Part shown: piece after piece, positions 1,632 to 51,344 of the stretch | Numbering within the stretch: position 1 is the stretch's first letter | How the letters are laid out: each line of letters opens with the position of its first letter | From: Planctomycetes bacterium GWF2_41_51 | Lineage (GTDB): Bacteria > Planctomycetota > Phycisphaerae > Sedimentisphaerales > UBA12454 | Length of the DNA: 64,000 nt | Assembly (NCBI GenBank): GCA_001825665.1 | Contig: MHXZ01000103.1 | Coordinates: 5,993-69,992 of the forward strand | Direction of reading: 5' to 3' | The notes under the pieces: model-generated | Database searches by the model: none | Told to the model about the DNA's origin: nothing | What the model saw: the letters and a program-made list of their open reading frames with translations, nothing else | Made by a program: the position numbers and the translations under genes

Positions 1632-2639
1632 CTAATCTATAACCGCAAAAGCAACTGCCTCGATATTTTGAGGAGGAACGTTAGGCAGGAGTGCCTCATG
1701 GCTTGGGCTGATAATCAGATTGGGGCCAAGTAATTGTTTGATTCTTTTGACATATAATTTTATTTCTTCAGGATTGGAATTAACCAGCAAGTCCTGAGTA
1801 TCAACGGCACCCATGAAACTGATTCTGCCTTTAAATTCTTTAAGCGTTTGCGCATCCATTCCAACAGCTAAAGCCTGCAAAGGATGCAGGCAATCAACTC
1901 CAGCATCGATAAGCCTGTCAATAACTTTGTGAATAGAGCCGCAACTATGTAAAATCACCTGGTAATTATGCGCATGAGCCTGTTTTGTAAAAGTTCTGAA
2001 CCATGGCAGGATAAATTCATCAAATTGAGCGGGACCGCAAATCAAATCAAGCTGAGTTCCAAAATCGTTTCCGAAAAAGAAGCCGTCTATCTGATTGCCT
2101 GCCTCTTTATAAAAACGTTCATTCGCCTCATAATAGAATTGGCATACTTTGTCTGTCAACGCATGTACAACTTCCGGATGCGTATACATTTTTATCAAAT
2201 AATTTTCCATGCCGAAGAGGTCCATCACATTATGATAAAAGCACGTCCAAAAACCACTGGCACGATAAAAATCGCCAGCGGTTCGAAGATGCTCAATACA
2301 TTCATCGAAATTAAGATAATCAGGATTTGGCCAGTCATAATCATTTATTTGAGCAATATTCTGGCAATCAGCAAATACGGGTTTGCAATTTGGATCTTTA
2401 TTGAGACCCGAATCAAACATTTCCTTACCTTCGGGATGCCTATAAGTTGATTTTATAAATTGAGGTGAAATCCATCGCAAATCATCACCGAGTTTTTGTC
2501 TTAATTGTTCTTCCGTTTCGGTTCCGAAATAATTGTGGTAAATCGGCCATGTATCCGGATGAGGATTGCCCAGCCAAAAACCACATCTGTCGGCGACACT
2601 GCCGCTAATAATTTTTTTTAAACGTATTCGACTGTTCAT
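1632..2639 (-). CDS. URO-D/methylcobamide methyltransferase-like TIM-barrel protein
   Basis: GNDFGTQ, ILHSCG, LHPLQ, FMGAVDTQ, ISPSHEAL motifs; lacks the HemE RQAGR motif. Confidence 0.8.
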   Translation of the reverse strand: MNSRIRLKKIISGSVADRCGFWLGNPHPDTWPIYHNYFGTETEEQLRQKLGDDLRWISPQFIKSTYRHPEGKEMFDSGLNKDPNCKPVFADCQNIAQINDYDWPNPDYLNFDECIEHLRTAGDFYRASGFWTCFYHNVMDLFGMENYLIKMYTHPEVVHALTDKVCQFYYEANERFYKEAGNQIDGFFFGNDFGTQLDLICGPAQFDEFILPWFRTFTKQAHAHNYQVILHSCGSIHKVIDRLIDAGVDCLHPLQALAVGMDAQTLKEFKGRISFMGAVDTQDLLVNSNPEEIKLYVKRIKQLLGPNLIISPSHEALLPNVPPQNIEAVAFAVID

Positions 2640-2672
2640 ATTTTGTCCACATTTAGCTTAAACAAATATTTT

Positions 2673-3836
2673 TTAATAAACGCATTTTTTAGCTTCATCG
2701 CCGAAAGCCTCGAGTAATTCCAAATCTGCGTCGAAGAAATGGTCTGAGGGCGCAAGAATATATGCGCCATTTCTTCCGGCTTCTTCAAAACATCTTCGCA
2801 CTTCGGCGCGCACATCAGCAGGAGTGCAATCTTTGAAAAAATGCAACTGGTCAAAACCGCCTATCATACAAATATCTGATGGAATACGTTTTCGCGCCTC
2901 AGCAAGATTGGCGTCGCCGCCCATGCCGACTGGAGTAAAGGTTTCCATCGCGTCGGGCTTCATCGCCGCGATCTTTTCGAGTATCGGCATCATGCCTCCG
3001 CAGGTGTGATAAACGACCCTTTGTCCGGCATTGTGTGCGGCCTCTATGATGGGCATATCATAAGGAGCTACGAATTCATCAAATAATTTTGGTGATATGA
3101 CGGTAGATGATGCATCTCCGCCGCCCAATTCGAGAACGTCATATTTAGCGTCCTTGAGCGACTGGGTGAAAATTAATTTTCTTTCCTGTAAGATTTTTAG
3201 AAAGCTGTGCACCCATTGCGGATCATCGAATGTCGCCATGATGAGTTCTTCAATGCCGAAGAGGCATGCAGCATCCTGCCAACAGCCGGGCTGGCCGAAT
3301 ATATCGAAACATGCGATGTGTCCGCGGACAATGCCTCGTTCTCCAAATTCGGCTGCAACATGGTTGACGCTTTGCACATCACATTTTGGGGCTGCGGCAT
3401 ATTTGCCAATCAGGTCAATATCGTTTTTGTTTTTTATAAGGCGCTCGGTTACCCATGATGTGTAATCATTGGAGCCTATCGACATTGTAAGTTCGCCGCC
3501 AGGCGTTTTGAATCTGTATCGGGTCGTAGGATATTTTTGGTGCGGTACGTCCTCCCATTCAATATGCCATTGGTCGGATGAGATAAGACGACTGCCAAGA
3601 AAATCCAGCTCGCCCTGGTTAGGATTATAATACTCGCCTTTTTGCTCATCCGGACGATGAGGCACAGCCCAGGCTATCGGATCGAAGCCAAAACGGTCAA
3701 AAAATTCATCTATGTTTGAACCGTTCATACAATTTTTTAGAAAGAAAGGCATTACATGGTGTGTTGTAATCGGCAGGCGGTCAGGTTTTCCGCCTTTAAG
3801 GGCACAAATCATTCTTTGTTTTGAAGTCATTTGCAT
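2673..3836 (-). CDS. URO-D/methylcobamide methyltransferase-like protein
   Basis: MTSKQRM..AL.GGKPDRLP N-terminus, ISPKLFDEFVAPY, YHTCGG, MIGGFDQ, YILAPSDH. Confidence 0.8.
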   Translation of the reverse strand: MQMTSKQRMICALKGGKPDRLPITTHHVMPFFLKNCMNGSNIDEFFDRFGFDPIAWAVPHRPDEQKGEYYNPNQGELDFLGSRLISSDQWHIEWEDVPHQKYPTTRYRFKTPGGELTMSIGSNDYTSWVTERLIKNKNDIDLIGKYAAAPKCDVQSVNHVAAEFGERGIVRGHIACFDIFGQPGCWQDAACLFGIEELIMATFDDPQWVHSFLKILQERKLIFTQSLKDAKYDVLELGGGDASSTVISPKLFDEFVAPYDMPIIEAAHNAGQRVVYHTCGGMMPILEKIAAMKPDAMETFTPVGMGGDANLAEARKRIPSDICMIGGFDQLHFFKDCTPADVRAEVRRCFEEAGRNGAYILAPSDHFFDADLELLEAFGDEAKKCVY

Positions 3837-3839
3837 AAG

Positions 3840-5573
3840 TTATAACTCATCTATCAGGCTGCAAAGTGATTTCGTATCGCCGTGGAAATATGCTTTTCTT
3901 AGCCGCAGTTGGTCGTCGCCTTTGAGCCGGGCATCGAGTAAGCGGAAGATTCGCTCCTTTAGCCAATAGGCATTGTGATATTTTTCCCATGTCGAAGAAG
4001 CAATTGCCAAATCGTCCAGAGCCGGCGTACAGAGGCCCTTCTTCCATAAGGCACTATACATCATCAGAGCATCGTGCCAGGACTGGCTTGTTATTTGCCG
4101 GAATTTTTCATTTAAACCCGACCAGCCGAGCTTGGCAGGATCAAACAATTCTATTTTATCTTTTTCATCAAGCAGTGATATTATCAAATCGATTTTTTGG
4201 TCGCCATCATAATCGTAAGATATTTCATCAAAGAAACCATTGTTATCTGTATCCTTATACAACACAACTTCCTGGGCTTTGGTCGCTTGTTTAGATGAAC
4301 TATTGCCCGGCGTTCCTATCGGAGTACCGCCCCAATATTGAGCATTGGCGTCCACAGTCCAGGCACCTGTTTCAGCGCCGAAGAGATGAAACTTTTTGTC
4401 CCATGAACCTATGTAGAATTGGCCATTGCCGCTATTGTCCAAATCCCACTCGCCGCGATCTCCGAGCGAATCGCATTGAACGTGACGGGAGAGAGAATTA
4501 CAATCGTTGGCGCGATCCCAGAACTTGCGGCAGAAGGCATAAGGATCGCCGGGCTGATAAAATTCAACACGTTCCCATCGATGGTCGTCATCGTCTTCGT
4601 CAAATGTAAAATAACAGCCGCCCCAGCCTTTTGCGAAAACGGCATCATAACATTTTTCGTGAGGTACATATATCAATTCGTCAATCGTTCGCCAATTTGT
4701 GTGCTGAAAATAAGGCAGAACCCATTGAGGGACCTTAAGTGCAGGATATTTATTTTTTGCATTCATGTAATCGGCAGCTTTGCCGCCAAAAAACTTTAAT
4801 GACATATCAAAGTCAAATTCGTTTCCTCTCTGGCTATCATTATCAATATCATAAGTTACGTAAGCTTCGCCAACTTCGCCCTTATACTCATATATATTGT
4901 CTTTTTGAACGGCTAAATCTATTAATCTTATAGCCATTTCGGTACAACCATCGTCATCGGTATCATAGAACGCAAATGGATTTTCCCAGCTTAGCCGCGC
5001 ATCATTGACGGCATACGGCGGGACGTGAATTTTGAGAAATATCGAATCTCCATTGTAATCGGGAGAAAAATTACCAGCGCCCGTGTATCTCCAGCATGCG
5101 AGTTCGAATTTTTGCCAATCTATATAACCAAGCACTCCGTCTTTATCTACATCCACAAAAACCATATAATGCGAACTGCCTCCCCAAAGCTGCTTTTGAG
5201 TACGGTTTGGATTTATCGCAATAACCTGGACATCCGCCCTGCCATCCTTGTCATTGTTAGACCAATCTATAGTCATATCGCTATCGCCATCGTAAATTCC
5301 ATCTCCATCCATATCGACTTGTAAGGAATCATTAACGATATCGCCCATTTGATCTGTTTTGCGCATATCGTCATTTTCGTCAAACCAGCGCACGCGTTTG
5401 CCGTTCCACCATCTCTCGATAATATCAATATCGCCATCATTATCGACATCTAATTTGATTACCTGCTGCGGGTTGTTGGAATCAAGCTGGGAAGTCCAAA
5501 ACTCTGAACCAAAACATAACGAATTAATAACTAAAATAATAATGATAGTAAGAGGATGTAAATATTGTAACAT
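3840..5573 (-). CDS. Secreted conserved hypothetical protein rich in DxDxDG Ca-binding loops
   Basis: Signal-like N-terminus; many DxDxDG-type motifs (DVDNDGD, DMDGDG, DVDKDG, DTDDDG, DTDNNG, DYDGD). Confidence 0.6.
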   Translation of the reverse strand: MLQYLHPLTIIIILVINSLCFGSEFWTSQLDSNNPQQVIKLDVDNDGDIDIIERWWNGKRVRWFDENDDMRKTDQMGDIVNDSLQVDMDGDGIYDGDSDMTIDWSNNDKDGRADVQVIAINPNRTQKQLWGGSSHYMVFVDVDKDGVLGYIDWQKFELACWRYTGAGNFSPDYNGDSIFLKIHVPPYAVNDARLSWENPFAFYDTDDDGCTEMAIRLIDLAVQKDNIYEYKGEVGEAYVTYDIDNDSQRGNEFDFDMSLKFFGGKAADYMNAKNKYPALKVPQWVLPYFQHTNWRTIDELIYVPHEKCYDAVFAKGWGGCYFTFDEDDDDHRWERVEFYQPGDPYAFCRKFWDRANDCNSLSRHVQCDSLGDRGEWDLDNSGNGQFYIGSWDKKFHLFGAETGAWTVDANAQYWGGTPIGTPGNSSSKQATKAQEVVLYKDTDNNGFFDEISYDYDGDQKIDLIISLLDEKDKIELFDPAKLGWSGLNEKFRQITSQSWHDALMMYSALWKKGLCTPALDDLAIASSTWEKYHNAYWLKERIFRLLDARLKGDDQLRLRKAYFHGDTKSLCSLIDEL

Positions 5574-5615
5574 TATTTTCCTTTCTAAACCTGCATAGAA
5601 TTAATTCGAGTTGTC

Positions 5616-8600
5616 TCAATTACGCAATACTAAAGGCTGCCTGTTAGAAAAATCATCATATAAAGGTGCGGCCGGACTGATGTCATCATTGGCGATATCT
5701 GCTATTGTGATTGCAAAAATTTTTATTTTTGGATTATCAGGCAAAACTAAATTTTTTGAACCGTTTAGATTTAATCTATATTTAAATATATAGCAGTAAT
5801 TATAAGCATCGTTTTGCAAAGGGCTATGACGATGCGAACAGAACCATGCGATGTTATCACGTTTGATAAAGCCGGGTTCAAGTCCTATTACCTTCGCCTG
5901 TCCTTTGAAATCTGCCTTTTCAAATGCACTATCCCAAATGCGTCTATCATAACTGCCGACAAAACCTGTCCAACCCTGTATTTCAATGTTAATCTCTTCG
6001 TCGTCCAATTTGAAAACGGCTTTGGTATCTTCATCGGCTGCCGCCAGTAAATATACGACATCGTAATTACCTTTTGGCAAGACTATGGTTTTACCATTAC
6101 AGGCGAGGGCGTTGTATTTGCCATCTTCAGCGCTGCCGAGTTCAAAATCGATTGAATCTCTATTAATTTTTTGCGGGAATTGTTCGGCAGGGAAGGTTTT
6201 GCCGGCAGAATCCATTTTACCATCGGTACGATTTGAATCACTGCTGATAACATCTGCGTTGTAATCCAATTTGACAATTTCACATTTTGGTCTGAATGTT
6301 TTATATTTTGCAGGTTTAAGTTGAACTGCAAAGCTTCGGATACCATTTGCTTCCATATTCAAAACGATTTTGCCGTCGTTAAGCGTTACGGATTTAATTT
6401 CTCTTTCCTGTCCATCGACCTGCATCGCTTTTGCAATGCCGCTGCCAATTGATAACGCCGCGTTTGCAGCAGGTTTGCCCATTACTTCCTGAACACGAAT
6501 AATATAGCTATTACTATTTTCGGCTTTTTTGAAGGCCTTTATCTCAATCTGGTCTGTATCGATATTAACCATTGAGATTTTTTTGCCGGCTGGTCCCCTA
6601 CTAGCAGCATCGGATTCAAAGGTAACCATCGGCTGATTTAATCTTCGCCCCTGCCATTGACTTTTGGCCGAACGCCAATCGGCGGTATGACCATAGATTC
6701 CATAAATGAATTCGTGGCGGCCCCAATCCTGCCATCCCTGATCATCGTATTTGCCTCGAGTACCGGGAGTATAAAGCAATGTTAAACGCAAAATATTGTC
6801 GGCGGGTTTATCAGAGCCGTATTTGCAGTCGTCTATAACAGAAACGCCATAAGAACCATCGCTATCTGTTAAATCAAACCACTGGTGAGAAGGAACTTCA
6901 TATTTTTTGGGATCGTTATTGGTTCTTTCAATAGTTCCCATGCCGAAGGTATAAGTTGCAACTGAATTACTGACGGTTAGCAGCATTTCGGCTTTCAAAC
7001 AAACGCCTTTTGACTGCCAGTCAATTTCGTTTTTCACTTCGACGATTGCCGACCTATCGTCGGAAGTCAAACGTACGTACTGGGTGAAAAAAGAATTTCG
7101 GGTTTGTCTGTCTATTCTCAGGCTCACGCGTACAGGACCGTTTTCGACAATTGTGATTTTTGCGGGGCCACTTACATAACCGATGGGAGGCTTTTTGCGG
7201 TCGTTCCAATCCATGTTCCATGCAGGCCATTCTTTTGGTTTTTCATTCAAAAAAGCAAGCCTGACTGGTTTTTCGAGCAACTGACGTTTTGCTTTCTTGT
7301 CGTAAATTTGGGCAATGTCACCATTTTTGTCTATTTCCACGATGAGATCTTTATTTTGAAGCACGTTTTCTTTAACTTCAATCTCTGTATCATACATTAT
7401 TTGTTTATCTACAGGACGCACATCAAAAACTGAAAATCCGATTGATGGAACATTGGCTGCAAAGATTATGGAGATATAATTATCGCCCGATTTTATGATT
7501 TGCGAAGGAGTCGGCGAACCATCAGGGCCAATAACTTCCACATATTTTGGTGTGTTGTAATCATATTTTAAAGTTGCCTCAACTACCTCAGTGCGTTCAA
7601 TAGACAACGGATTATAAACTACAAGTGATTTGCCTTTGGCAGTTGTATCCATAGTATTTACAATTGCGCCTGCTGAATTTTCGAGAACAGACGCAAAAGT
7701 ATTTAAAGCGATCACTTCATCATTATATGAATAGTCGTAGGCACTAGATACACACGTGCCTGGCAATATGTCGTGCATCTGACTCCCGAGTACAAGTTTC
7801 CAACCTGCGTTGATTTTGTCAATCGGGTACGCTGCGCCACCAACCCAATCGGCGGCAACGGCAGCGCGCTCGGCGGAATCGGCAAGCTGTTCGTTTTTTC
7901 TGTTCCATCGTTTCATATAAGCAGCGGAAGTAAGCGAACCTGCGGAATGTTCGATTAAAAGCAAATCGCCCCTGTAACGAGGAAGTTTTTGCTTTTGCTC
8001 ATTGCTGATATCTCTATAAAAACGATCGGACGATGTCAGATAAACTTTATATTTGCCATCGCTGTTTGCGGCGGCGGCAGTGTAATTATTGGCATCGGGA
8101 GGTCGAACAGAGCCGCCCCTGTCGCCGACGCCATAATAATGGTACTCAGCGAAAATGCCATATTTTTGGCCGTTTTCCTCAATCCTATCAGCCCAGTATG
8201 AATTCGCATTAGGTTGCTCTTTTATAGAACCAACGTAATCGCCCGGTCTGAATACGGCCATGATAGCATTGCCATCGGGACCTTCCCACATGCCAATATT
8301 GAATGGTATGCCTTTTGCGGAATTCCAAGTTAACTTTTGCGATGAAAAGCCGAGGATTCCGCAATGCGCAAGCACACTTGGAAATGTATCGGGGAAGCCG
8401 AAACAATCGGGCAGCATATAATCGTAACTCTCGACTCCAAATTCTTTTCGGAAATAGTCATTGCCATAAAGTACCTGCCTTATGACGGATTCAGGGGAAG
8501 GAACAAGTACATCACCTTCGTCAACGCTTGAGCCGCTTACGAACCATCTGCCCTGGCTGATGTATTCTTTTACTTTTTCATACTCGGCAGGATAATACTC

Positions 8601-8876
8601 CTTCATCATTTCATAGCGACGGGAGCCAGTAAAATTAAAAACATATCCTGGATATTTCTCAAATAAATCGAAATTATCATGCAGTGTATTCTTTAAATAT
8701 TCATTAATTGTTGTAACATAATCCCAACGCCACTGGGTATCGAGATGCGCATAGCCAACGGTATAAAGAACCTTGTCTTTGGTTAAATCGAAATTTTGTT
8801 TTTTTTGTTCAACTGCCTGAATATATTGGCAGGCCATCAAAATTAAAAGCGATACATATTTAATTTTTGAATTCAT
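5616..8876 (-). CDS. Alpha-mannosidase, GH38, secreted
   Basis: GYAHLDTQWRW (Zn-binding HxD), YMLPDCFGF nucleophile region, QMHDILPG; start moved to ATG 8876 after RBS AAGGTGAG (MNSKIK..., signal peptide). Confidence 0.9.
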   Translation of the reverse strand: MNSKIKYVSLLILMACQYIQAVEQKKQNFDLTKDKVLYTVGYAHLDTQWRWDYVTTINEYLKNTLHDNFDLFEKYPGYVFNFTGSRRYEMMKEYYPAEYEKVKEYISQGRWFVSGSSVDEGDVLVPSPESVIRQVLYGNDYFRKEFGVESYDYMLPDCFGFPDTFPSVLAHCGILGFSSQKLTWNSAKGIPFNIGMWEGPDGNAIMAVFRPGDYVGSIKEQPNANSYWADRIEENGQKYGIFAEYHYYGVGDRGGSVRPPDANNYTAAAANSDGKYKVYLTSSDRFYRDISNEQKQKLPRYRGDLLLIEHSAGSLTSAAYMKRWNRKNEQLADSAERAAVAADWVGGAAYPIDKINAGWKLVLGSQMHDILPGTCVSSAYDYSYNDEVIALNTFASVLENSAGAIVNTMDTTAKGKSLVVYNPLSIERTEVVEATLKYDYNTPKYVEVIGPDGSPTPSQIIKSGDNYISIIFAANVPSIGFSVFDVRPVDKQIMYDTEIEVKENVLQNKDLIVEIDKNGDIAQIYDKKAKRQLLEKPVRLAFLNEKPKEWPAWNMDWNDRKKPPIGYVSGPAKITIVENGPVRVSLRIDRQTRNSFFTQYVRLTSDDRSAIVEVKNEIDWQSKGVCLKAEMLLTVSNSVATYTFGMGTIERTNNDPKKYEVPSHQWFDLTDSDGSYGVSVIDDCKYGSDKPADNILRLTLLYTPGTRGKYDDQGWQDWGRHEFIYGIYGHTADWRSAKSQWQGRRLNQPMVTFESDAASRGPAGKKISMVNIDTDQIEIKAFKKAENSNSYIIRVQEVMGKPAANAALSIGSGIAKAMQVDGQEREIKSVTLNDGKIVLNMEANGIRSFAVQLKPAKYKTFRPKCEIVKLDYNADVISSDSNRTDGKMDSAGKTFPAEQFPQKINRDSIDFELGSAEDGKYNALACNGKTIVLPKGNYDVVYLLAAADEDTKAVFKLDDEEINIEIQGWTGFVGSYDRRIWDSAFEKADFKGQAKVIGLEPGFIKRDNIAWFCSHRHSPLQNDAYNYCYIFKYRLNLNGSKNLVLPDNPKIKIFAITIADIANDDISPAAPLYDDFSNRQPLVLRN

Positions 8877-8889
8877 AAAGCTCACCTTT

Positions 8890-10695
8890 TTATTTTTTAA
8901 TAGATAATTCCGATATTTCAACTACTGCCTGTTTGTCAATGGATATTTTTGCAATCGCTGAAATTGTAACATAAGTTCCTAAACCAAATAAAGCAAGGCA
9001 TATTCCGCCAATGGCATATCTTGCCAGGCAAATGTAGCCCACGCCAAAAAGTCCAAGGTATATTGTCAATACAGAAATAATCCAACCGAACCAGTTTGCG
9101 CTTACCTTTTCACATTTTGGCATATTCGGTTTATCGGCAAACGGTTTCCACCAGCCGCCGGGCAGGACTTTCAAATAGAATTTTTCCAAATGCTGCAAAT
9201 TAACGGGTTTTGTAATCAAAGTAACAATTATCCAAATAACGGAACTGACCGCAACTATGATCACATACCTGAGAGGAAACATTTCATCCGGCGCGAGCGA
9301 TGGAATGAATTTCAAAGTGTTTGCAAGAATAAATGAGGCGGCCATGGCGGAAATTTCAGACCACGCGTTTATTCTCCACCAGAACCAGCGGAACAGCACC
9401 ACGAAACCGGCTCCGGCATAAACCTCGGCGAGATATTTCCATGCTCCGGCAATAGACGTCATTTGCCATGTAACGATGACGGCTATGATAAGGACAAGCA
9501 CAGTAGCAATGCGTGAAACAAATACATAATGTTTTTTGTTACGCGCATTTGGACAAATAATTCTAATATAGAAGTCGTTTACAAGATAGGCAGCGGCGAG
9601 ATTAAGATTTGCGGCAATGGTACTTAAAAAAGCTGCAATGAAAGCGGCGAGCACAATCCCCATCAGTCCGCCGGGGAGAAACTTGACCATCATCTTTGGA
9701 TATGCAAGTTCGGGGTCTTCGCCGGGAATTAAAGGAAAATAAATCAGCGAAGCAAGTCCGACAATAATCCAGGGCCAACTGCGTAATACAATTATGCAGA
9801 AAAACCCCCAAATGGCGGCCAAACCTGCGTGTTTTCCATTTTTACAGGCAAACATTCGCTGGGCTACGATGCCAAGCCCTGCCGCCGACCACCACCATAA
9901 AAGACCGATGTAAACAAAGAACGTAAAAATCGCCAATAATCCGGCTGTTTTGAAATTAGGAAAGAAATCAAATACGGCCGGCGAAACACCGGGGGCATTT
10001 GCAACATTTTTGACTAACCCCCCAGGGCCTCGGTTTTCATATAAGACGATGACGGCAAGAACAATGAAGCCAACCATTGCCGCGAAAAAATGCAGCACGT
10101 CTGCCATCACAACGCCCCAGGCTCCCGCGAACATTGTATAACTCAATGCAAGCACTAAAAGAATGCCGTATATGAGGACGCTGCTGTAAATTGAAAATGT
10201 AAAAGTGCTTATTGAAAAAGTTACTGTTGACGGTATGTTAAAGATGGCTGAAACAATCTTGCCGACAGCCAGAATGACCCATCCGCAACAGATACAGATG
10301 CCGAAAATTCTTAAAAACGCATTAAATATCCTCAGCATCAAGGCAGCTTTTCCGTGATACCTAAGTTCGATAAATTCGACGTCGGTTAGGACGCCGGCGC
10401 GATTCCAAAGTCTTGCAAAAAAGAAAACCGTGAACATTCCTGAAAGTGCCATTGTCCACCAGAACCAATTTTCGTAAATCCCTGCCCGCCTGATGAAACC
10501 TGAAACAACCAGCGGCGTATCGGTGGCCAGATAAGTGGCAACTATCGAAGTCCCGGCGACAAACCAGTTAAGCTTTCGACCGGCTACGAAGAAGTCTTCC
10601 TTAGTCTTATTTCGATATGAAAACCATAGTCCGAACAAAACGGAGACGACGCAGTAGCCGATGATTATAGACCAATCTATTAAGGTTAACTGCAC
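8890..10695 (-). CDS. Sodium:solute symporter (SSS/SLC5)
   Basis: EDFFVAGRKL.WF.AG.SIVAT, EFIELRY, AQRMFACK, GLMGIVLAAFIAAFLST; GTG start after AGGAG. Confidence 0.9.
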   Translation of the reverse strand: MQLTLIDWSIIIGYCVVSVLFGLWFSYRNKTKEDFFVAGRKLNWFVAGTSIVATYLATDTPLVVSGFIRRAGIYENWFWWTMALSGMFTVFFFARLWNRAGVLTDVEFIELRYHGKAALMLRIFNAFLRIFGICICCGWVILAVGKIVSAIFNIPSTVTFSISTFTFSIYSSVLIYGILLVLALSYTMFAGAWGVVMADVLHFFAAMVGFIVLAVIVLYENRGPGGLVKNVANAPGVSPAVFDFFPNFKTAGLLAIFTFFVYIGLLWWWSAAGLGIVAQRMFACKNGKHAGLAAIWGFFCIIVLRSWPWIIVGLASLIYFPLIPGEDPELAYPKMMVKFLPGGLMGIVLAAFIAAFLSTIAANLNLAAAYLVNDFYIRIICPNARNKKHYVFVSRIATVLVLIIAVIVTWQMTSIAGAWKYLAEVYAGAGFVVLFRWFWWRINAWSEISAMAASFILANTLKFIPSLAPDEMFPLRYVIIVAVSSVIWIIVTLITKPVNLQHLEKFYLKVLPGGWWKPFADKPNMPKCEKVSANWFGWIISVLTIYLGLFGVGYICLARYAIGGICLALFGLGTYVTISAIAKISIDKQAVVEISELSIKK

Positions 10696-10733: not shown

Positions 10734-12065
10734 TTAACGCATCTTCGGCAACATTTTGCCATGCGCATCGAACATATCATCACAAAGGTCTTTTATTTTA
10801 TCAAGAGTGAGCTCGGAGGCTGTATGCGGATCGAGCATCGCGGCCTGATAAACATAATCTTTTTTGTTATTTAAAATTGCCTCCATCGTCAGAAGTTGCA
10901 CATTTATATTTGTCATATTCAGCGCGGCACATTGCGGGGGCAAATTTCCAACGAAGCAGCCGGTTACGCCGTTTTGATTTGCCAAACAAGGTACTTCGAC
11001 AACACAATCAGCAGGCAAATTTGGAATCAGCCCATTATTGAGAACATTGCCATTGAAACCGAAAGGAATATTGTTTTCAACTGCGTTTATTATATCGACG
11101 CAGTATTCCATGGATCTCTGGTGCTGTGTATCTTTGAGTATCTGCTTTTTGAGAGCGTTCCATTTTTGGATTTGGTTTTCGCAGCGACGGGGATATTCAT
11201 CGAGTGGAATATTGAATTCGGTTATAAGTTCGGGAAATTGAAATTTGATCCAATATGGAGTGTATTCGGCATTGTGCTCGCTTGACTCGGTAATGTAGTA
11301 ACCAAAATGCCGCATAATTTCCAAACGAATCATATCATTGTGCTTTATGCCTTTACCGCTTCGGGCAAGTTCATTTATTATAAGTGCTTTTTGTTTTATA
11401 ATCGGGTAAAGGTCTTTGCCTGATTCGGAGATTTCGAGCAGCCAGGCCATGTGATTGATACCGGCAATCTTCCATCTAATCTTGTTCGTATTTAACTGCA
11501 ATTTAACCGCAGATAATAACTCGCTTACACATTTCTGTACCGAATGGCAAAGCCCAACTGTCCTGACAGAAGTGCCTTTAAGCAAGATGCCCGTGATTAT
11601 TGCCATTGGGTTAACGTAATTGAGAAACAATGCGTTTGGGCAGAGTTTTTCCATCTCAGCGGCAATTTCCAGCAACACAGTCGAAGTTCGCAGCGCCCTG
11701 AAAATTCCGCCAACTCCGAGAGTATCGCCGATAGTCTGGCGCAGGCGATATTTTTTTGGTATTTCAAAATCGATTATCGTGGAAGGCTTGTATCCACCAA
11801 CCTGTATAGCATTAATAACGTAGTCGGCTTTTTTAAGCGCTGCACCGCGTTGAGATTTGCCGAGATGTGTTGTAATCACAGCCTTGTTGGAATTTATCTT
11901 TTCGTTGAGTTTGCCTATAATCAAAGCAGAATCTTCAAGGCGGCTGCGGTCTATGTCATATAGAGCGATGCGGCATTGGCGGAGAGAATCATTTAAAAAA
12001 ATATCACCAATCAGATTTTTTGCAAAAATTGTGCTGCCTGCGCCTAAGAATGTGATTTTGACCAT
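10734..12065 (-). CDS. melA: NAD+/Mn2+-dependent alpha-galactosidase, GH4
   Basis: KITFLGAGS, QTIGDTLGVGGIFRALR, LNYVNPM, GLCHSV, AGINHMAW, TESSEHNAEY, MLDPHT. Confidence 0.85.
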   Translation of the reverse strand: MVKITFLGAGSTIFAKNLIGDIFLNDSLRQCRIALYDIDRSRLEDSALIIGKLNEKINSNKAVITTHLGKSQRGAALKKADYVINAIQVGGYKPSTIIDFEIPKKYRLRQTIGDTLGVGGIFRALRTSTVLLEIAAEMEKLCPNALFLNYVNPMAIITGILLKGTSVRTVGLCHSVQKCVSELLSAVKLQLNTNKIRWKIAGINHMAWLLEISESGKDLYPIIKQKALIINELARSGKGIKHNDMIRLEIMRHFGYYITESSEHNAEYTPYWIKFQFPELITEFNIPLDEYPRRCENQIQKWNALKKQILKDTQHQRSMEYCVDIINAVENNIPFGFNGNVLNNGLIPNLPADCVVEVPCLANQNGVTGCFVGNLPPQCAALNMTNINVQLLTMEAILNNKKDYVYQAAMLDPHTASELTLDKIKDLCDDMFDAHGKMLPKMR

Positions 12066-36879: not shown

Positions 36880-36882
36880 TTA

Positions 36883-45187: not shown

Positions 45188-46732
45188 TTATTCAGAGTCT
45201 GTTCTGAAAGGCGAGACCGGCAATCCCTGCTTGTTGAAAAGATTGCATTCGATCCAGTCAGACCAGCCATATCGAACGGCTGCCGGATTTTTCACATGTT
45301 CAGACCAGACAAGAACTGCATCACCATCAAGTTTAGCGTTTGCCCATACGAATTTTTTATCATGGCCTGCGATTGAGAATCCTTTTATTTCATTTCCTTT
45401 CGATACCAGTGATGAACCAAAGGTATCGAAAGTAATGCGAACTTTGTTTTCTTCGACTTTCATGTTTTTGTACATTGGGCTTGAATAGACAATGTCCTTA
45501 AAGCCGTAATCTTTCGCCAAAGCCCATAATGCAAGACGTTTGCCGACTTGCTGTTTATTTTTTGGGTGAATTTTAAATACTTCACCAATGTCCATGATGA
45601 CAGCCATGCCGGTGTTTTTCAAATTCAATGTCATTGATTGTGCTTCACGAAGTTTAGCCCAATTTGAATCAGGAGGAAGCGATAAATCCGGGCGACCTTT
45701 AGAATCTTTTTTCATCTGTTTTCCAAAAGGAGCAAGCTGAACATAATAAAAAGCAAAATCGCCCTGCTTCCAATCATCACGCCAATTTTGAATCATGGCA
45801 GGGAATAATTTTCTATACCGCAAAGCATCATTGACGTTCGATTCGCCCTGATACCATATCACACCTTTGATAGCGAATGGGATAATGGGATGAATCATGG
45901 CATTATAAAGCATCGAAGACCTGTTTTTATCGTTTAATTCGCCTGGTAATCTCGGTTCAGGCAGAGACTTGCCGGAAGTTTGTTTTGCTTTTTCCTCTTT
46001 CCAGCTTCGGAGCTGCTGATCATATTTAGCCTGATATTGGGGTTTATCTGCAATGATTTGCTGGTCGAAATCCCAATACCATTTCAAATCATTATCGCCG
46101 ATGAGGATTTCTTTTCGAGTCCATGCTTGGGCGGGCGTTCCGCCGAAAGAAGAATTAATAAGACCGATGGGCACATTTAATTTATTGTGCAATTCCCGGC
46201 CGAAATAATACGCGACCGCACTGAATTGTGCAATGTTTGCAGAGTCGCATATCAGCCATTTACCAACTGTATCATCAAGAGGCTGCGGAGAAGCTTTTCT
46301 TTGAACTGTGAACAAACGAATGTGAGGATAGTCAGCAGCGGCTATTTCATCATTCGCATCATTGGCATCTTTTACAGTCCATTGCATGTTGGATTGGCCG
46401 GAACAAAGCCAGACCTGACCGATAAGAATGTTTTCTATTGTCGTGGATTCATTATTGGAAGATATTGTTATAGTGCAGTTATTACCGCTTTTAGGTGTTT
46501 TTACTTTTAGCTGCCATTTACCACTATTATCTGCAACAGCAACATTTTTTTCGTTTGACCATGAACAAGTTACTTCGACTTTTGCCAAAGGATCGGCAGT
46601 GCCCCAAAGAGGCGCGTTTGTATCGGCCTGAAGAACCATATTGTCTGAAATAATAGATGGTAATTTTATTTCAGCAAAAGAAAACGAAACAAGTGAGACG
46701 ATAATAGCAAAATAAAATATCTTCCTGACCAT
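45188..46732 (-). CDS. Sialate O-acetylesterase-like (SASA) carbohydrate esterase, secreted
   Basis: LPSIISDNMVLQ, VWLCSGQSNM, FSAVAYYFG, GVIWYQGESN, LREAQ, IHPKNKQQVGKRLA. Confidence 0.9.
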   Translation of the reverse strand: MVRKIFYFAIIVSLVSFSFAEIKLPSIISDNMVLQADTNAPLWGTADPLAKVEVTCSWSNEKNVAVADNSGKWQLKVKTPKSGNNCTITISSNNESTTIENILIGQVWLCSGQSNMQWTVKDANDANDEIAAADYPHIRLFTVQRKASPQPLDDTVGKWLICDSANIAQFSAVAYYFGRELHNKLNVPIGLINSSFGGTPAQAWTRKEILIGDNDLKWYWDFDQQIIADKPQYQAKYDQQLRSWKEEKAKQTSGKSLPEPRLPGELNDKNRSSMLYNAMIHPIIPFAIKGVIWYQGESNVNDALRYRKLFPAMIQNWRDDWKQGDFAFYYVQLAPFGKQMKKDSKGRPDLSLPPDSNWAKLREAQSMTLNLKNTGMAVIMDIGEVFKIHPKNKQQVGKRLALWALAKDYGFKDIVYSSPMYKNMKVEENKVRITFDTFGSSLVSKGNEIKGFSIAGHDKKFVWANAKLDGDAVLVWSEHVKNPAAVRYGWSDWIECNLFNKQGLPVSPFRTDSE

Positions 46733-46736
46733 TGCG

Positions 46737-47663
46737 TCATCCTTTAAAATCTTTAAATTGTTTCAAATATTTTGCTATCTTTTCCTTTTCCGGTTCTCTG
46801 AAACAATGGAACGGTTCTTCGATAAAGTCGTTGCAGATGCCCATCAGATTCAATGAGGCTTTCACGCCTTTGATGAAACTTGAGCTATATCTGCCTGTAC
46901 TGTAAATCGTCGTGCTAATCCACATAACTTTTTTGTGCAGTTCACGAATTTTCTCTATATCACCTGCAATTGATGCGTTATACAAATCAACGTACAATTT
47001 CGGGAAAATGTTAGCCCCGCCGCAGATTCCGCCGTGGCCGCCAAGCAAGATTGTCTCGGCAAGCAGTTCTTCAGGACCAACAAGGAAAGAAAAATCTTTT
47101 CTTTCATTTAGCAGTAAAAGTAATTTATGGAAATAAATCATATTCGCGGAACTATCTTTGATGCCGTGAATATTTGGTATTTGGGCAGCTTTAATAACCG
47201 TATCAGGCTCAAAGAAAACTTTTGTGCAGCTTGGCATGTTATACAAATACAGCGGCAATGGAATTTTCGGAGCAAGATGCTCAATGTACTCTATCAATTC
47301 AGGCTGACCAGCCTGAAAATAATAAGGCGGAGCGAGAACGACAGCGCTGACGCCCTGTTTTTGTGAGTGTTCAGCAATTTTTATAGATTCGATGTGCGAT
47401 GTATCTGTGATGCCGACGAGGACGGGAACGCGATTATTGACGAGTTTGCAGGTACGTTCGATTAATTCGTAGCGAAGTTTGTAGCTTAAAGACGGAGCTT
47501 CGCCTGTGGTGCCGAGAATGAACAGGCCATGGACTCCGCCTGCGATGATATGTTCGACAAGTTTTTCCAAACCTTTAACGTCGATGTTGTCCCTGTCGAG
47601 CAGAGGTGTAATCATTGGCGGTATTATGCCTTTAAGTGGCCGGGGTAAATTTGATATTTTCAT
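46737..47663 (-). CDS. DapA/N-acetylneuraminate lyase-family aldolase
   Basis: GIIPPMITP, GTTGE, LYNMP, GIKDSS (Schiff-base Lys). Confidence 0.88.
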   Translation of the reverse strand: MKISNLPRPLKGIIPPMITPLLDRDNIDVKGLEKLVEHIIAGGVHGLFILGTTGEAPSLSYKLRYELIERTCKLVNNRVPVLVGITDTSHIESIKIAEHSQKQGVSAVVLAPPYYFQAGQPELIEYIEHLAPKIPLPLYLYNMPSCTKVFFEPDTVIKAAQIPNIHGIKDSSANMIYFHKLLLLLNERKDFSFLVGPEELLAETILLGGHGGICGGANIFPKLYVDLYNASIAGDIEKIRELHKKVMWISTTIYSTGRYSSSFIKGVKASLNLMGICNDFIEEPFHCFREPEKEKIAKYLKQFKDFKG

Positions 47664-47665
47664 TA

Positions 47666-48811
47666 TTAATTATTCCTTTTAAATTTTTTTGATGCTTCAA
47701 TTAAAGCATTAATATTTTCCTTAGCAGTATTTGGCGGAACAACACAGCCTGAGCCAAGTATGAATCCGCCCTTTGAACCTGCGCCTGCCATACATTCAAA
47801 AGCTTCATTCATCACTTCTTTGGGAGTTCCGTTCAGAAGAGTGAGTGTGTTTACGCCGCCCATTAACGAAACACTATCTCCTGCTTTTTCGCGAGCCTGC
47901 TTTACTGTAAAACCACCAAGAGGGTCAAGAGGCGCAATGTTATCAAGACCTGCTTCGACAAGCAAATCAATAATGGGAAGTACATTGCCGCAGATGTGAC
48001 AATAAATAATTGCATTTTTATTATATTTATGCAGTTCTGTACAAATTGTTTTGATGTATGGAAAGACAAATTCTTTCCAGTGCTGCGGAGAAATCAAAGA
48101 CATATTGCCGGCCGAATCATTCAATCGCAAAACATTGATGCCCATATCGAGCCAGTATTTGCCTTTGTTAATTGCAATTTGCGTGCCCTTTTCAAGGACA
48201 GCATGCACCAGACCAGGTTGCATAACCAAATCCATCATTGCATTATTCATGCCTCTAAAAGCGATGTAAAAAGCGATTGTTGCTGAATCACAATTTCCGA
48301 TAAAATGCAAGTTATTGCCGAATTCGTCAATTACAGCTTTTTGCCTTTTTGCCCAACCGAGCTGATTAAATACATTGGAATCAGGAACAGCAATTGCCTT
48401 TACATCTTCAATTGAATTTATAACAGGCTCTGGAGAAATCCAATTATGACAATAAGCCATCGTGAAAGGGTCGGAGATGTTGTAATCTTTGGAATCGAAA
48501 AGATGAGTTGCCAAACCGCCGGCCATATCGATTTTACCGATTCTCTCGCCGGATTTATTTATTTCGAAAACTTCGCCGTTTTCTTCAATAATATTTCTTG
48601 GAGCAAAGTGAAATTGTCTGACGGCATCAACTTCCAATTTTTTACCGGCTTGTGCAATTACCTTTAAAGCCGTTAAAGGGTACTGGATGATATCTATCAA
48701 AGATGTGCCAGTAACTTTAGCAGAGAAATCGACCCAGATTTTTGGCACAACAGGTACACGGTCAACTTCTTTGCCTTTAAGAGCATTTAAAAATCGTTCT
48801 GATACTTTCAT
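47666..48811 (-). CDS. URO-D/MtaA-like methyltransferase-fold protein
   Basis: ERFLNALKGKEVDRVPV, ISPQHWKEFVFPY, HICG, LMGGVN, FILGSGC (MtaA-type HxC...C Zn site). Confidence 0.85.
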   Translation of the reverse strand: MKVSERFLNALKGKEVDRVPVVPKIWVDFSAKVTGTSLIDIIQYPLTALKVIAQAGKKLEVDAVRQFHFAPRNIIEENGEVFEINKSGERIGKIDMAGGLATHLFDSKDYNISDPFTMAYCHNWISPEPVINSIEDVKAIAVPDSNVFNQLGWAKRQKAVIDEFGNNLHFIGNCDSATIAFYIAFRGMNNAMMDLVMQPGLVHAVLEKGTQIAINKGKYWLDMGINVLRLNDSAGNMSLISPQHWKEFVFPYIKTICTELHKYNKNAIIYCHICGNVLPIIDLLVEAGLDNIAPLDPLGGFTVKQAREKAGDSVSLMGGVNTLTLLNGTPKEVMNEAFECMAGAGSKGGFILGSGCVVPPNTAKENINALIEASKKFKRNN

Positions 48812-48812
48812 A

Positions 48813-51344
48813 TTATTTTGTCAATTCGTGCCAAATATCATACATTTTTTTACACTCGTCAATGCTATCCGGAAAAACGGTCGGACGCAAGACGCATTTA
48901 GCGCCTGTGTCTTTGATAATATTCGCGATTCGAGTTAGATACTGTTTCCATGATTCTTTTTCCATGTTCGCGAGTTTACCATAGAAAATAGTATTAGTTT
49001 TTGCACATTTATCAAGCAAATGGTGCGTATCATACATTTCGGGATTGCCCAAATCGATTGCCTTAACGAAATCACATTCGAGTATCTTATCATATAAATA
49101 ATCGTGTTTGCCGCAGAAATGCACGAAAGCACCGCCAAATGGCTTTGCGGCCTGCCGCATGTAAGGAATTACAAATTCATCAATCATCGAAGGCGAGAGA
49201 AGCGTAGGCGTATCTTCGGAAAGCCTTACACCTGCGTTTGGAAAGTAAAGGCCCTGCTGTGTGCCGTGGCCGTGAAACATTGAGCCGGCATCTTCTCCCA
49301 TACATTTTTTGAGCTTTAACGAAACCTTGACATAAAATTCTGTGATGATATGTAAAAGCTCTTTGATTTTTTCTTTTTTGTCCGCAAGTTCATAGAAAAT
49401 CGCATCGCCAAGAAGTAAATGCAGGATATCAAATACGCCCTGCGTATCAGGCATGTACGTACAAATCTGCCGTGAACCTTTTTTGTTGTTTATTTCATAA
49501 AATTTTTCGGCAAGGTTCATCACCTGTGTAGAACCAATATCAATATTTCTGATTTCGGAAATTTGTTCTATTGATAAATGTTCGCCCGGCCAAGGCATTT
49601 GACCATCTCTGATGACAAAATCCTGCCCGGCAATGGATGGAATAAAAATCGTACCAAGATTTGGCCTGATTGCCGGTATTCCATCTGTCGGCCAATCCAG
49701 AACAGCCGTTGCTCTTTTGCATTCAGCATCCCACATTTTTTGAGGATCATAAAATCGCTGCTCATAATTATCAGTATCGTATTGAACCATTTGAGCAGAA
49801 GGTATGAAAATCAGGCAGGATGTTTTTGACTGCCAGAAATCTTTATGAAGTTGCTTTTTCTGTTCAGTGTTCATTGCCGCTCCGCCGGAAAAAACCAAAA
49901 TAAATCCAACTAAAATCAAGATGCCTACGCCGCAGGCACCTGCAAGAATGCTGTCAATATTGCATTGAGCCCATTTCCAATTTTCTGGAAGGCTGCGGAA
50001 GAAAGTAACCCAGGAAATGACAAGAATGCTTGCAGCAACAGCGGTGATGCCCTGCCATGATTTTAATTTCACTTTGCAAAGCGCCAGTATGAACAGGCCG
50101 AGGATTCCGCCGCCGAAAATTCCGGAAATCTGCCACCAGATGTTTAATGCGCTTTGAGCTCTAATCATCAGGACCGCAAAGATAATTGAAAGTCCGCCCC
50201 AGACAACGGTTGTCCAGCGGAGGAATGAAAGACTTTTCTTTTCGCTTAAATCAGGTTTCATCCATTTAATAAAATCAAGAAGCAATACTGTTGCGGAACT
50301 ATTCAATGATGAACTAAGGGTACTCATGGCCGCGGCGATGATTGCTGCGATGATTAGGCCTTTTAAGCCCACAGGCAATTGCGTAGCAATAAAATACGGG
50401 AATACCTGGTCACCTTTTGTAATTGTGTCGGGCAACACGTTGCCGCCGGTGTGATAGAATGCAAAAAGCGATGTTCCGATATACAGGAAAACAGGAGTCA
50501 TTGGGATGTAGATTGCCATGCTGATGATAATCGCTTTTTTTGCGGAACGTTCATCGGAAACCGTTGAGTATTTCTGGACATAATTCTGGTCAGCGATTAA
50601 ATTTCGCAAATTTTCGGTCAGACTGTAAATAATCATTACCCATATCGTCCTGCTTGAAAAAGAAAAATCGAGACTGCCAAGACTGAATTTGCCCGCTTCG
50701 GCAGCAAGCTTAATTGGATATTCCGGGCCGGTGAAAAGATATTTTGTAAAGAGTATCACGCAGAAGAGCAGACCGCCAATCATGATTATGGATTGCATTA
50801 CGTCAGTCCAGATGACTGCTTCCATTCCCCCGACGAGAGTGTAAAAAACTGTGATAAGACCTATGATTATAATCAAGGTAACAATATTGATGGGTATGAA
50901 AGTTCCGACAAGCAGTGCTGTGAGATAGATGATAACAGCGGAACGGCCAATCATGTAAACAACGAATGATAGCGCACTGTAAATTCTTGCCCATTTGCCA
51001 AGGCTGTTTTCAAGCAGGCTATAAACTGATACAAGTTTTATTCTTCGATAATATGGAATGATGTACCAGCAGACTAACCAGACAATGGGCGGTATGCAAA
51101 GAACAAAAACTGCTGGGTGCCAATTAGTATCGAATGCCTGGCCGGGAACAGCGATGTAGGAAATGCTGCTGACATACGCGCTCATAACCGCGATGCCGGC
51201 TGCCCATGCTGGAATAGATTGGCCCGCGAGCATGAACTGTTCACTGGTGCGAGTTTTGCGAAAATAATATACGCCCATGCCGACACAAATCAAAGCGTAT
51301 AAAATTAACATTGATATATCGATAACGCCTAAATTTGCTGTCAT
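48813..51344 (-). CDS. SSS symporter (SiaT-like, about 490 aa) fused in frame to a URO-D-like domain (about 353 aa)
   Basis: N-terminal FMLAG..IPAWAAG, GGMEAVIWTD, DQNYVQKY, AAMSTLSSSLNS; C-terminal DTQGVFD, SEDTPTLLSPSMIDEFVIPY, VHFCG; no stop between the parts. Confidence 0.8.
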   Translation of the reverse strand: MTANLGVIDISMLILYALICVGMGVYYFRKTRTSEQFMLAGQSIPAWAAGIAVMSAYVSSISYIAVPGQAFDTNWHPAVFVLCIPPIVWLVCWYIIPYYRRIKLVSVYSLLENSLGKWARIYSALSFVVYMIGRSAVIIYLTALLVGTFIPINIVTLIIIIGLITVFYTLVGGMEAVIWTDVMQSIIMIGGLLFCVILFTKYLFTGPEYPIKLAAEAGKFSLGSLDFSFSSRTIWVMIIYSLTENLRNLIADQNYVQKYSTVSDERSAKKAIIISMAIYIPMTPVFLYIGTSLFAFYHTGGNVLPDTITKGDQVFPYFIATQLPVGLKGLIIAAIIAAAMSTLSSSLNSSATVLLLDFIKWMKPDLSEKKSLSFLRWTTVVWGGLSIIFAVLMIRAQSALNIWWQISGIFGGGILGLFILALCKVKLKSWQGITAVAASILVISWVTFFRSLPENWKWAQCNIDSILAGACGVGILILVGFILVFSGGAAMNTEQKKQLHKDFWQSKTSCLIFIPSAQMVQYDTDNYEQRFYDPQKMWDAECKRATAVLDWPTDGIPAIRPNLGTIFIPSIAGQDFVIRDGQMPWPGEHLSIEQISEIRNIDIGSTQVMNLAEKFYEINNKKGSRQICTYMPDTQGVFDILHLLLGDAIFYELADKKEKIKELLHIITEFYVKVSLKLKKCMGEDAGSMFHGHGTQQGLYFPNAGVRLSEDTPTLLSPSMIDEFVIPYMRQAAKPFGGAFVHFCGKHDYLYDKILECDFVKAIDLGNPEMYDTHHLLDKCAKTNTIFYGKLANMEKESWKQYLTRIANIIKDTGAKCVLRPTVFPDSIDECKKMYDIWHELTK

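Follow-up and report, generated by a model that had tools for sequence, protein, structure and literature searches.

UroD-fold proteins in planctomycete sugar loci as candidate methyl-sugar:corrinoid methyltransferases sharing one B12 carrier

Background

The closest described counterparts of the proteins treated here are corrinoid-dependent methyltransferases of the UroD superfamily. Known methyltransferase I (MT I) enzymes with this fold are CdmB, MtvB, OdmB, VdmB and MtoB, with and without zinc; in the accessible part of the source, zinc is absent from CdmB and MtvB and present in some of the others, and the structure nearest to CdmB is human UroD, at a Z score of 26.4 (PMC13222342). The characterised enzymes described there come from acetogens and one methanogen and use aryl methyl ethers or methyl halides, and each is usually encoded beside a corrinoid protein of its own. 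We have analyzed a stretch of 64,000 nucleotides from Planctomycetes bacterium GWF2_41_51 (contig MHXZ01000103.1, positions 5,993 to 69,992; hereafter the window), which encodes five divergent proteins of the uroporphyrinogen decarboxylase (URO-D)/MtaA fold among carbohydrate loci. The window is part of contig C103 in an assembly of 4.83 Mb that is 95.6% complete. On balance we favour the reading that the five proteins are substrate-specific methyl-sugar:corrinoid methyltransferases (MT I) that share one B12 carrier. They are cytoplasmic members of a very large UroD-superfamily paralog clade; with ~75 copies, no other enzyme family in the genome is as large.

The window proteins, lettered a to e in map order, are like the known MT I enzymes in several respects. 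They are TIM barrels, and the model of copy a reaches a Z score of up to 26.3 to UroD, against the 26.4 given for CdmB; a variable metal requirement is a further likeness, as far as the same source describes it (PMC13222342). The partners with which the known enzymes act, namely a stand-alone corrinoid protein of the MtaC type, an activase and a methyltransferase II (MT II) forming methyl-tetrahydrofolate (methyl-THF), are all encoded in the genome. Unlike the known enzymes, the copies lie in glycan loci with sugar symporters, their proposed donors are sugar methyl ethers, and ~75 copies are set against one distant carrier; no corrinoid protein adjoins in the window, and one is present in only 2 of 80 ortholog loci. 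In sequence, a weak PDB match ties the copies to one of the named MT I enzymes, CdmB (9rui; E 0.003 with copy d, 2.6e-4 with the copy a profile).

Two further groups share the fold. The MT II enzymes MtaA, MtbA and MtsA (TIGR01463) give the best sequence and Foldseek matches and have the H-x-C motif in common with the copies, with the distal Cys shared by d and e as well. Unlike these enzymes, copies a to c have a distal His in place of Cys, all copies score below the cut-offs of the MtaA-type models, and their clade lies apart from corrinoid-adjacent MtaA-like genes; moreover, coenzyme M (CoM) metabolism would not be expected in this bacterium. HemE, the enzyme of haem synthesis, has the Pfam family and the fold in common with the copies, but these lack the N-terminal RQAGR motif, carry a metal-ligand motif instead, fall short of the hemE model and have HemE as their outgroup.

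Mlp proteins (mlp clusters) are, like the window proteins, MtaA homologs outside the methanogens, and are predicted to be corrinoid-dependent; unlike the window proteins they are >25% identical to characterised CoM methyltransferases and have their own fixed cluster, and in the main text of that paper, so far as available, the words sugar and carbohydrate have 0 occurrences each (PMC10418091). A literature search gave no report of a corrinoid-dependent sugar demethylase. The only carbohydrate demethylase that it found is the O2-dependent cytochrome P450 6-O-methyl-galactose demethylase of marine Bacteroidota, encoded in a polysaccharide locus; going by the part of the paper at hand, this enzyme would have the equivalent task of taking off a methyl ether that stands in the way of sugar breakdown, but it has an unrelated fold and needs O2, whereas the system proposed here would be oxygen-free and would keep the methyl group as a one-carbon (C1) unit (PMC6292453).

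The five URO-D-fold proteins

The five open reading frames (ORFs) that an earlier note on this DNA had listed are all present and intact on the minus strand, which carries all large window ORFs except one regulator. Copy a (1632-2639; 335 amino acids (aa), cytoplasmic) scores 78.5 bits on PF01208 and has HSCG with a distal SH; copy b (2673-3836; 387 aa) scores 75.2 bits and has HTCG with SDH; copy c (17702-19069; 455 aa, GTG start), a member of a large paralog clade, scores 58.1 bits and has HSCG with TH. Copy d (47666-48811; 381 aa) is the most MtaA-like, with 164.2 bits and the full H-x-C...C triad (HICG, GSGC). Copy e is part of an intact fusion ORF of 843 aa (48813-51344), in which an SSF symporter part (49875-51344; PF00474, 131.6 bits, residues 37-423) is joined in frame to a C-terminal URO-D-fold domain of 353 aa (domain e, 48813-49874; HFCG with AKC). 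Copies a to d pass the PF01208 gathering cut-off of 23.9 bits and domain e, at 16.9 bits, falls below it. Domain e is a family member despite this score: it is recovered at E 3.5e-36 by a hidden Markov model (HMM) of the genome's own paralogs, and its AlphaFold2 (AF2) model, with a pLDDT of 81.3, has its best Foldseek matches in UroD and MtaA (E 5e-8). The Pfam E-values of the copies range from 1e-15 to 5e-48 and the genes are intact; the five copies are not a chance cluster.

All five copies keep the HxC motif (HSCG, HTCG, HSCG, HICG, HFCG) and lack the RQAGR motif of HemE, as the earlier note had said; an RQAGR-like motif was found in 0 of the 86 family ORFs of the genome. Its reading of the third-ligand position was right for copies a to d (SH, SDH, TH and GC), but wrong for the fused copy e, to which it had given no such ligand: the AKC of copy e aligns with the Cys of GC, TGC or AGC in MtaA-like copies, and two stand-alone homologs have ARC there. 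In an alignment to 4ay7 the distal third-ligand Cys is present in d (HICG...GSGC) and e (HFCG...AKC), with a His at this position in a, b and c. The zinc ligands of the MtaA/CmuA family are presumably this His-x-Cys and the distal Cys.

For the fused SSF-URO-D form, a search of database proteins of 463-1476 aa gave no match but the window's own. Homologs of domain e stand alone in two other genomes (65% identical in G025, 49% in G023); an SSF partner upstream of the G025 homolog was considered and discarded, the upstream ORF not being an SSF. At the junction (49860-49890) the symporter frame reaches the ATG of the URO-D domain without a stop and GGAG lies a few bases upstream, so that domain e might also be made separately. 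A second fusion of a sugar-processing domain to a symporter is found elsewhere in the genome (C119:9667-12261, L018), where an SSF symporter has an N-terminal NanM-like Kelch (sialate mutarotase) domain.

Family expansion and phylogeny

PF01208 has 71 matches in the genome, one of them with an in-frame stop. An iterated paralog HMM found 86 ORFs, ~2% of the crude gene calls, with 14 pairs <300 nt apart; 77 of the ORFs have at least 300 aa. A few of the weakest HMM matches may be MetE-like, and C68_54222 matches only a methionine-synthase model. Among the 77 full-length copies the H-x-C position reads HxC in 38, HxD in 20, DxD in 9, HxH in 3 and otherwise in 7; thus the motif invariance of the window copies fails genome-wide.

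Could these proteins be true HemE? Both the PF01208 matches and the structural Z score of ~26 to UroD would be expected of HemE. The scores and the tree refute this reading. TIGR01464 (HemE) is matched by copy d alone, at 43.3 bits against an equivalog cut-off of 302.95, and true HemE proteins of the same phylum score 330-454 bits on PF01208 as against 58-164 for copies a to d. In NCBIfam, copies a to e are nearest to the MtaA/CmuA models (TIGR01463, NF004889), with best scores of 51.7, 68.4, 47.4, 128.7 and 23.9 bits, respectively, at cut-offs of 235-244. Copy d scores 104-129 bits on the MtaA-type models, and its best PDB match is MtaA (4ay7, E 3e-16). A search of the genome for a true HemE found none; the top Pfam scorers, C70_30012 and C29_33228, reach 140-165 bits on MtaA-type models as against 95-101 on hemE (cut-off 303).

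A quick IQ-TREE phylogeny was built from 89 rows: 77 of the genome's own copies (nine own family ORFs <300 aa being left out), five from the ortholog loci L056 and L109 described below, four corrinoid-adjacent genes from G129 and G137, and three HemE of the same phylum. The HemE proteins form the outgroup (SH-aLRT 99), and a single clade of 77 rows (SH-aLRT 94) contains all five window proteins. The corrinoid-adjacent MtaA-like genes are basal and separate from this clade. C70_30012 pairs with L056_5525, and C29_33228 with the L109 gene adjoining a corrinoid protein; with several long branches, such detail of the tree is unsure. The clustering with true HemE or with methylamine methyltransferases that the earlier note had named as evidence against itself is not what is found, given the outgroup position of HemE and scores far below the MtaA/MtbA model cut-offs. 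On these grounds, together with the want of RQAGR in the family, the HemE function was rejected.

In four same-order relatives we noted URO-D ORFs of ~545 aa (L142:7611-9320, L143:7902-9527, L144:2691-4316 and L145:4574-6214) that have a full-length URO-D domain (198-209 bits on PF01208) and a C-terminal extension of ~200 aa. They were considered as methyltransferase-corrinoid fusions and set aside, no corrinoid domain being seen in the extension.

Corrinoid machinery in the genome

The earlier note had seen no corrinoid protein or activator in the window, and this holds: the matches to B12-binding and RACo models, and phmmer matches to the genome's own corrinoid protein, are all on other contigs. 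A search of the genome, which it had proposed for corrinoid and RamA-like genes, did turn up candidates for each partner. The one DxHxxG corrinoid protein (contig C14, 209 aa, DLHDIG) consists of B12-binding_2 and B12-binding domains and scores 200 bits on TIGR02370, 'methyltransferase cognate corrinoid protein', against a cut-off of 215. Two RACo-type activases are encoded; that on C67 is shorter and RamA/AcsV-like, with 409 bits on the AcsV model (cut-off 800). A candidate MT II is an 816-aa fusion (C78:17126-19576; L017:5127-7577) of methylenetetrahydrofolate reductase (MTHFR), DUF5981 and a methyl-THF:corrinoid methyltransferase (MeTr) domain, the last with 90 bits at a cut-off of 259.

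Several other candidates were dismissed. Adjoining the C14 corrinoid protein is a 239-aa B12-binding_2/B12-binding look-alike (L009:9735-10454), which lacks the DxHxxG histidine and was not retained as a second carrier; a counterpart of ~245-270 aa is present in nearly all of 30 same-order relatives. The second activase, on C68, belongs to a cluster for acetyl-CoA synthase/carbon monoxide dehydrogenase and the corrinoid iron-sulfur protein (ACS/CODH-CFeSP), and was rejected as the activase of the family. Its close type occurs in only two of the 30 relatives (G020 and G027), so that it is not tied to the family expansion. In this cluster (C68:43653-50422, L014) the beta subunit of ACS/CODH and a CdhD-like part form one fused protein of 1170 aa; the CFeSP large subunit and the AcsV-type RACo are also encoded there. 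A Pterin_bind protein on C5, a further MT II candidate, is dihydropteroate synthase.

The genome's only cobalamin riboswitch (64 bits; C47:5204-8347, L162) is followed by genes for two secreted proteins of unassigned family (248 and 337 aa) and for a 293-aa prepilin-like protein with an N-methyl-type N-terminus. This set may represent an undescribed B12 uptake set.

Orthologs of copy a and their loci

Copy a has 3627 relatives at E <1e-5. The best 80 of 104 ortholog loci were analyzed; these orthologs are 58-72% identical to copy a and come from metagenome-assembled genomes (MAGs) named from over a dozen bacterial groups, the titles including Planctomycetota, Verrucomicrobiota, Kiritimatiellia, Lentisphaerae, Latescibacterota, Hydrogenedentota, KSB1, Chloroflexota, Bacteroidota, Sumerlaeota, Armatimonadota and others. 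H231, C233 and G234 are invariant among them and H314 is nearly so. This conservation bears on the reading that the family members are non-catalytic sugar-binding or regulatory proteins, or paralogs decaying after the expansion. The copies are only 21-29% identical to each other, with long branches in the tree, and their active-site motif varies, as such proteins might; against this stand the identity of the copy a orthologs and their invariant residues over a dozen or more groups, and the single in-frame stop in 71 matches. We consider it very improbable.

The most recurrent neighbour in the 80 loci is GH38 (18 loci), followed by MFS sugar transporters (9), LacI regulators (8), GH29 (6), zinc alcohol dehydrogenases (Zn-ADH; 4) and Gfo/Idh/MocA oxidoreductases (4). 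The association with GH38 is the same as in the window, where the second gene upstream of copy b encodes GH38. Within the genome itself, too, the family is systematically linked to sugar loci: within three genes of a family copy lie 21 of 50 SSF symporters, 15 of 33 GH2, 10 of 24 Gfo/Idh/MocA, 8 of 29 DUF1559, 7 of 16 sulfatases, 7 of 26 LacI, 6 of 9 beta-helix proteins and 6 of 14 GH38, over a background of 8.8% of all genes.

These neighbourhoods speak on a second alternative, that the proteins are corrinoid-dependent methyltransferases with non-sugar donors or acceptors, such as methoxylated aromatics, methylated thiols or amines, or other solutes imported by SSF carriers, the sugar loci being mere neighbours. 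It has in its favour that the characterised UroD-fold MT I enzymes, so far as described, all use aryl methyl ethers or methyl halides (PMC13222342), that SSF proteins are also carriers of non-sugars (NCBIfam matches are to proline, pantothenate and acetate symporters), and that d and e both retain the His-Cys-Cys triad characteristic of MtaA, a thiol-methylating enzyme. The systematic linkage to glycosidases in the genome and the linkage of copy a to GH38 across phyla are not accounted for by it, and aromatic-degradation genes were not seen among the annotated neighbour families. We judge it distinctly unlikely.

A corrinoid protein is encoded in two of the 80 loci, and both proteins are 51-56% identical to that of our genome and orthologous to it. 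In L109, from a Verrucomicrobiota MAG, the gene order is GH38, URO-D (HICG), corrinoid protein, URO-D, copy a ortholog, GH38 and copy b ortholog, the last being 57% identical to copy b. In L056, from a Kiritimatiellia MAG, it is GH38, MFS, three URO-D, copy a ortholog, GH29, GH38, AraC-PocR, corrinoid protein and MFS. The co-clustering is suggestive only, and the gene order is the stronger point. Around the corrinoid proteins of 30 other genomes the neighbours are variable, with a URO-D gene adjoining in 2 of the 30 short loci. A metagenome scan with copy d found no corrinoid protein nearby in 10 loci, which were mostly short, one being from the same organism, and is uninformative.

Co-occurrence across genomes

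Partner genes were sought in the genomes behind 50 of the 80 ortholog loci, mostly the longer loci. RACo_C_ter is present in 48 of these 50 genomes as against 1 of 14 control genomes. A small corrinoid ORF at least 47% identical is likewise present in 48 of the 50; of the remaining two genomes, one lacks it and the other has only a fragment where a contig ends. The carrier and activase genes adjoin in several genomes, and in G035 they are followed by a MeTr-like gene. The MeTr-MTHFR fusion occurs in 8 of the 50 (58-76% identity, ~820-850 aa), plus three distant cases, and so is not a universal partner.

A similar pattern was found in a phylum sample of 121 evenly drawn genomes, at least 90% complete, in which a genome was called expanded if it had at least 10 first-look URO-D candidates (six of the 99 other genomes, for which candidate counts were unlisted, were taken as not expanded). 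The corrinoid protein, at E 1e-40 or better, is encoded by 20 of the 22 expanded genomes and by 13 of the 99 others. In at least six of these 13 carriers that are not expanded, the corrinoid protein adjoins two full-length URO-D genes.

Structure and complex models

The AF2 model of copy a (pLDDT 94.5) is a UroD-type TIM barrel. Foldseek places MtaA first (4ay7, 2.4e-13), and Z scores of 25.7-26.3 are obtained to both UroD and MtaA, with a root mean square deviation of 3.1-3.4 Å over ~297 residues. A complex of copy a with the C14 corrinoid protein was modelled from alignments of 41 and 17 rows, respectively. The three ipSAE scores were 0.76, 0.77 and 0.75, and that of the best control was 0.01; both partners have pLDDT values of at least 87 and the runs agree in at least 88% of contacts. 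In calibration, 58 of 80 solved complexes came up to the tool's mark, as did 2 of 110 mismatched pairs, counts that are only rough here since our own alignments were supplied. The predicted interface is formed by barrel-mouth loops of copy a (144-153, 195-205, 257, 282) and, on the corrinoid side, by the corrinoid-binding face (103, 106, 148 and 176-178, the DxHxxG-motif loops) with the cap helix 55-67. This modelled geometry appears sensible for methyl transfer, and the controlled complex model supports the predicted binding of copy a to the corrinoid protein.

Proposed pathway

Methylated sugars are common in the glycans of algae, plants, microbes and invertebrates, and exo-glycosidases are blocked by methyl ethers. 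In the pathway that we propose, methylated sugars would be freed outside the cell by secreted glycosidases and taken up by SSF symporters. The glycosidases have signal-peptide-like N-termini; GH4, the oxidoreductase, the lyase and the URO-D copies have none, and the last would thus be expected to encounter sugars that have already been imported. The copy specific for the sugar would bind it, and its His/Cys/His (or variant) metal site would polarise the methyl ether. The methyl group would pass to the Co(I) form of the single shared stand-alone carrier (C14, 209 aa, DLHDIG), leaving an ordinary sugar for central metabolism. Methyl-Co(III) could then be unloaded either to tetrahydrofolate, by the MeTr domain of the C78 MTHFR fusion, or to a thiol, by MtaA-like copies with a full His-Cys-Cys site, and oxidised cobalt would be re-reduced by the RamA/AcsV-like activase on C67. 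What the analysis shows is the fold and the non-HemE clade, the placement in sugar loci, the partner genes, the L109 and L056 clusters, the co-occurrence and the complex model; methyl transfer, O-methyl sugars as donors, the acceptor and one carrier for all copies are what we infer. The comparative evidence favours the suggestion of the earlier note that O-methyl sugars may be demethylated anaerobically with a corrinoid protein acting in trans.

A number of observations weigh against this proposal. The Z scores of copy a to UroD and MtaA are tied, so the fold cannot decide its function, and the complex score is a model confidence that may reflect family likeness. The metal motif is varied across the 77 copies. 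Two corrinoid matches in the 0.94 Mb of ortholog loci compare with ~0.3-0.5 expected by chance (P 0.04-0.08). The co-occurrence is confounded by anaerobic lifestyle and shared ancestry, relatives not being independent; in the phylum sample the URO-D search was run at E 1e-30, for which reason loose candidate counts served as the proxy for expansion, and two expanded genomes (G120 and G173, 90-91% complete) have no match to the corrinoid protein. Among the 30 same-order relatives URO-D matches number from 0 (G004, G005 and G009) to 46, and small B12-binding_2 proteins are found in 31 of 31 genomes of the order and RACo in 29 of 31. Within the order the presence of the carrier thus does not follow that of the family, an argument against their being dedicated partners, and the occurrence of carrier and activase in the three genomes without URO-D means that both have another job as well. 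The genome has three MttB-family genes, for whose products the corrinoid protein could be the ordinary carrier. Under our proposal ~75 enzymes would depend on one corrinoid protein, unlike the known systems, in which each MT I usually has its own adjoining carrier. CobS and CbiC were searched for and not found in the genome, so that B12 is probably scavenged; a single carrier would economise on such B12. A search of the window, L056 and L109 for cobalamin riboswitches found none. Finally, the methylation of the target glycans is itself presumed.

The main rival, which the earlier note had offered in a Zn-dependent form as its second suggestion, is that the copies are corrinoid-independent, metal-dependent TIM-barrel sugar enzymes (isomerases, epimerases, dehydratases or lyases, or decarboxylases), the URO-D fold having been recruited as a new carbohydrate class. 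The variety of motifs (HxC 38, HxD 20, DxD 9 and HxH 3 of 77) resembles that of hard-metal sugar enzymes, and for 10 of the 24 Gfo/Idh/MocA oxidoreductases a family copy is at most three genes away. D-tagatose 3-epimerases are weak Foldseek matches to the domain e model (E 5e-4 to 4e-3). That there is a single corrinoid protein, which does not scale with copy number and is found in only 2 of 80 ortholog loci, also accords with such enzymes. The rival is weakened by what it does not predict: the corrinoid clusters of L109 and L056, the co-occurrence in 48 of 50 genomes and the contrast of 20/22 with 13/99, and a complex score of 0.76 against 0.01 for the best control. Searches of the PDB and the literature, moreover, gave no characterised PF01208 member with such chemistry. 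We regard this rival as unlikely, and methyl transfer to a shared corrinoid carrier as the more probable account.

Sugar-locus neighbourhood in the window

By Pfam scan the window is a series of carbohydrate loci. Its enzymes are GH38, GH4, two GH2, GH35, PL8, GH59, GH30, a GH5-ricin protein, a SASA esterase and three BNR_2 sialidase-like proteins; also encoded are five SSF symporters, a Gfo/Idh/MocA oxidoreductase, a NanA-like lyase, and DUF1559/N-methyl and PEP-CTERM proteins. The features that follow up to the NanA-like lyase are all on the minus strand. Between copy b and GH38 is a gene for a secreted protein of 577 aa (3840-5573) with a hydrophobic N-terminus and no Pfam or NCBIfam match. 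Next are the GH38 alpha-mannosidase (5616-8921), with a signal-peptide-like N-terminus, an SSF sodium:solute symporter (8890-10695; PF00474, 113.9 bits), a cytoplasmic GH4 glycosidase without a signal peptide (10734-12065), the Gfo/Idh/MocA oxidoreductase, also without one (12078-13235), and a second SSF symporter (13243-14775), the Pfam family being the basis of assignment for GH38, GH4, the oxidoreductase and this symporter. A GH2 enzyme (14876-17671), judged secreted from its N-terminus, follows, and directly upstream of copy c is a further SSF symporter (19227-20837; PF00474, 146.1 bits).

Beside copy d lie genes for a secreted SASA-type sialate O-acetylesterase (45188-46732) and a cytoplasmic DHDPS/NanA-like lyase (46737-47663), both assigned by Pfam, NCBIfam and their N-termini. 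The sialidase-like proteins, O-acetylesterase, NanA-like lyase and symporter around copies d and e would suit a modified nonulosonic acid as the target of this locus.

Other features of the window deserve mention. A threefold module at 56478-63224 consists of secreted BNR_2 sialidase-like proteins (361, 357 and 389 aa) alternating with secreted proteins of 511-588 aa. The latter share an N-terminal '(F/Y)WDGGG...W...NW' motif, and one copy is weakly NosD/beta-helix-like; a 539-aa protein at 53602-55221 resembles them. An unusual fusion at 31284-34133 joins a PL8 polysaccharide lyase to an N-terminal domain of the endonuclease/exonuclease/phosphatase family (residues 36-241). At 51516-52658, in a glycan locus and adjoining the SSF-URO-D fusion, is a protein of the inosine-uridine nucleoside-hydrolase family with a hydrophobic N-terminus.

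Conclusions

If the proposed activity is true, it would give a function to a large family now labelled 'uroporphyrinogen decarboxylase family protein', and would describe a corrinoid methyl-transfer system with many enzymes on one carrier. Glycan breakdown would be tied to C1 metabolism and, since the genome is apparently unable to make B12, to cross-feeding of this vitamin. More tentatively, and as a possibility rather than our expectation, we suggest that anaerobic glycan degraders of many phyla have a 'demethylome': tens of UroD-fold enzymes per genome, each for one kind of imported methylated sugar, with a single carrier of scavenged B12 and with the methyl groups entering folate and Wood-Ljungdahl C1 metabolism. 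Such a system would be an oxygen-free counterpart of the P450 sugar demethylases, with a hub-and-spoke design not known for corrinoid methyltransferase systems. It touches on the question of how anoxic sediments, groundwater and guts deal with methylated sugars.

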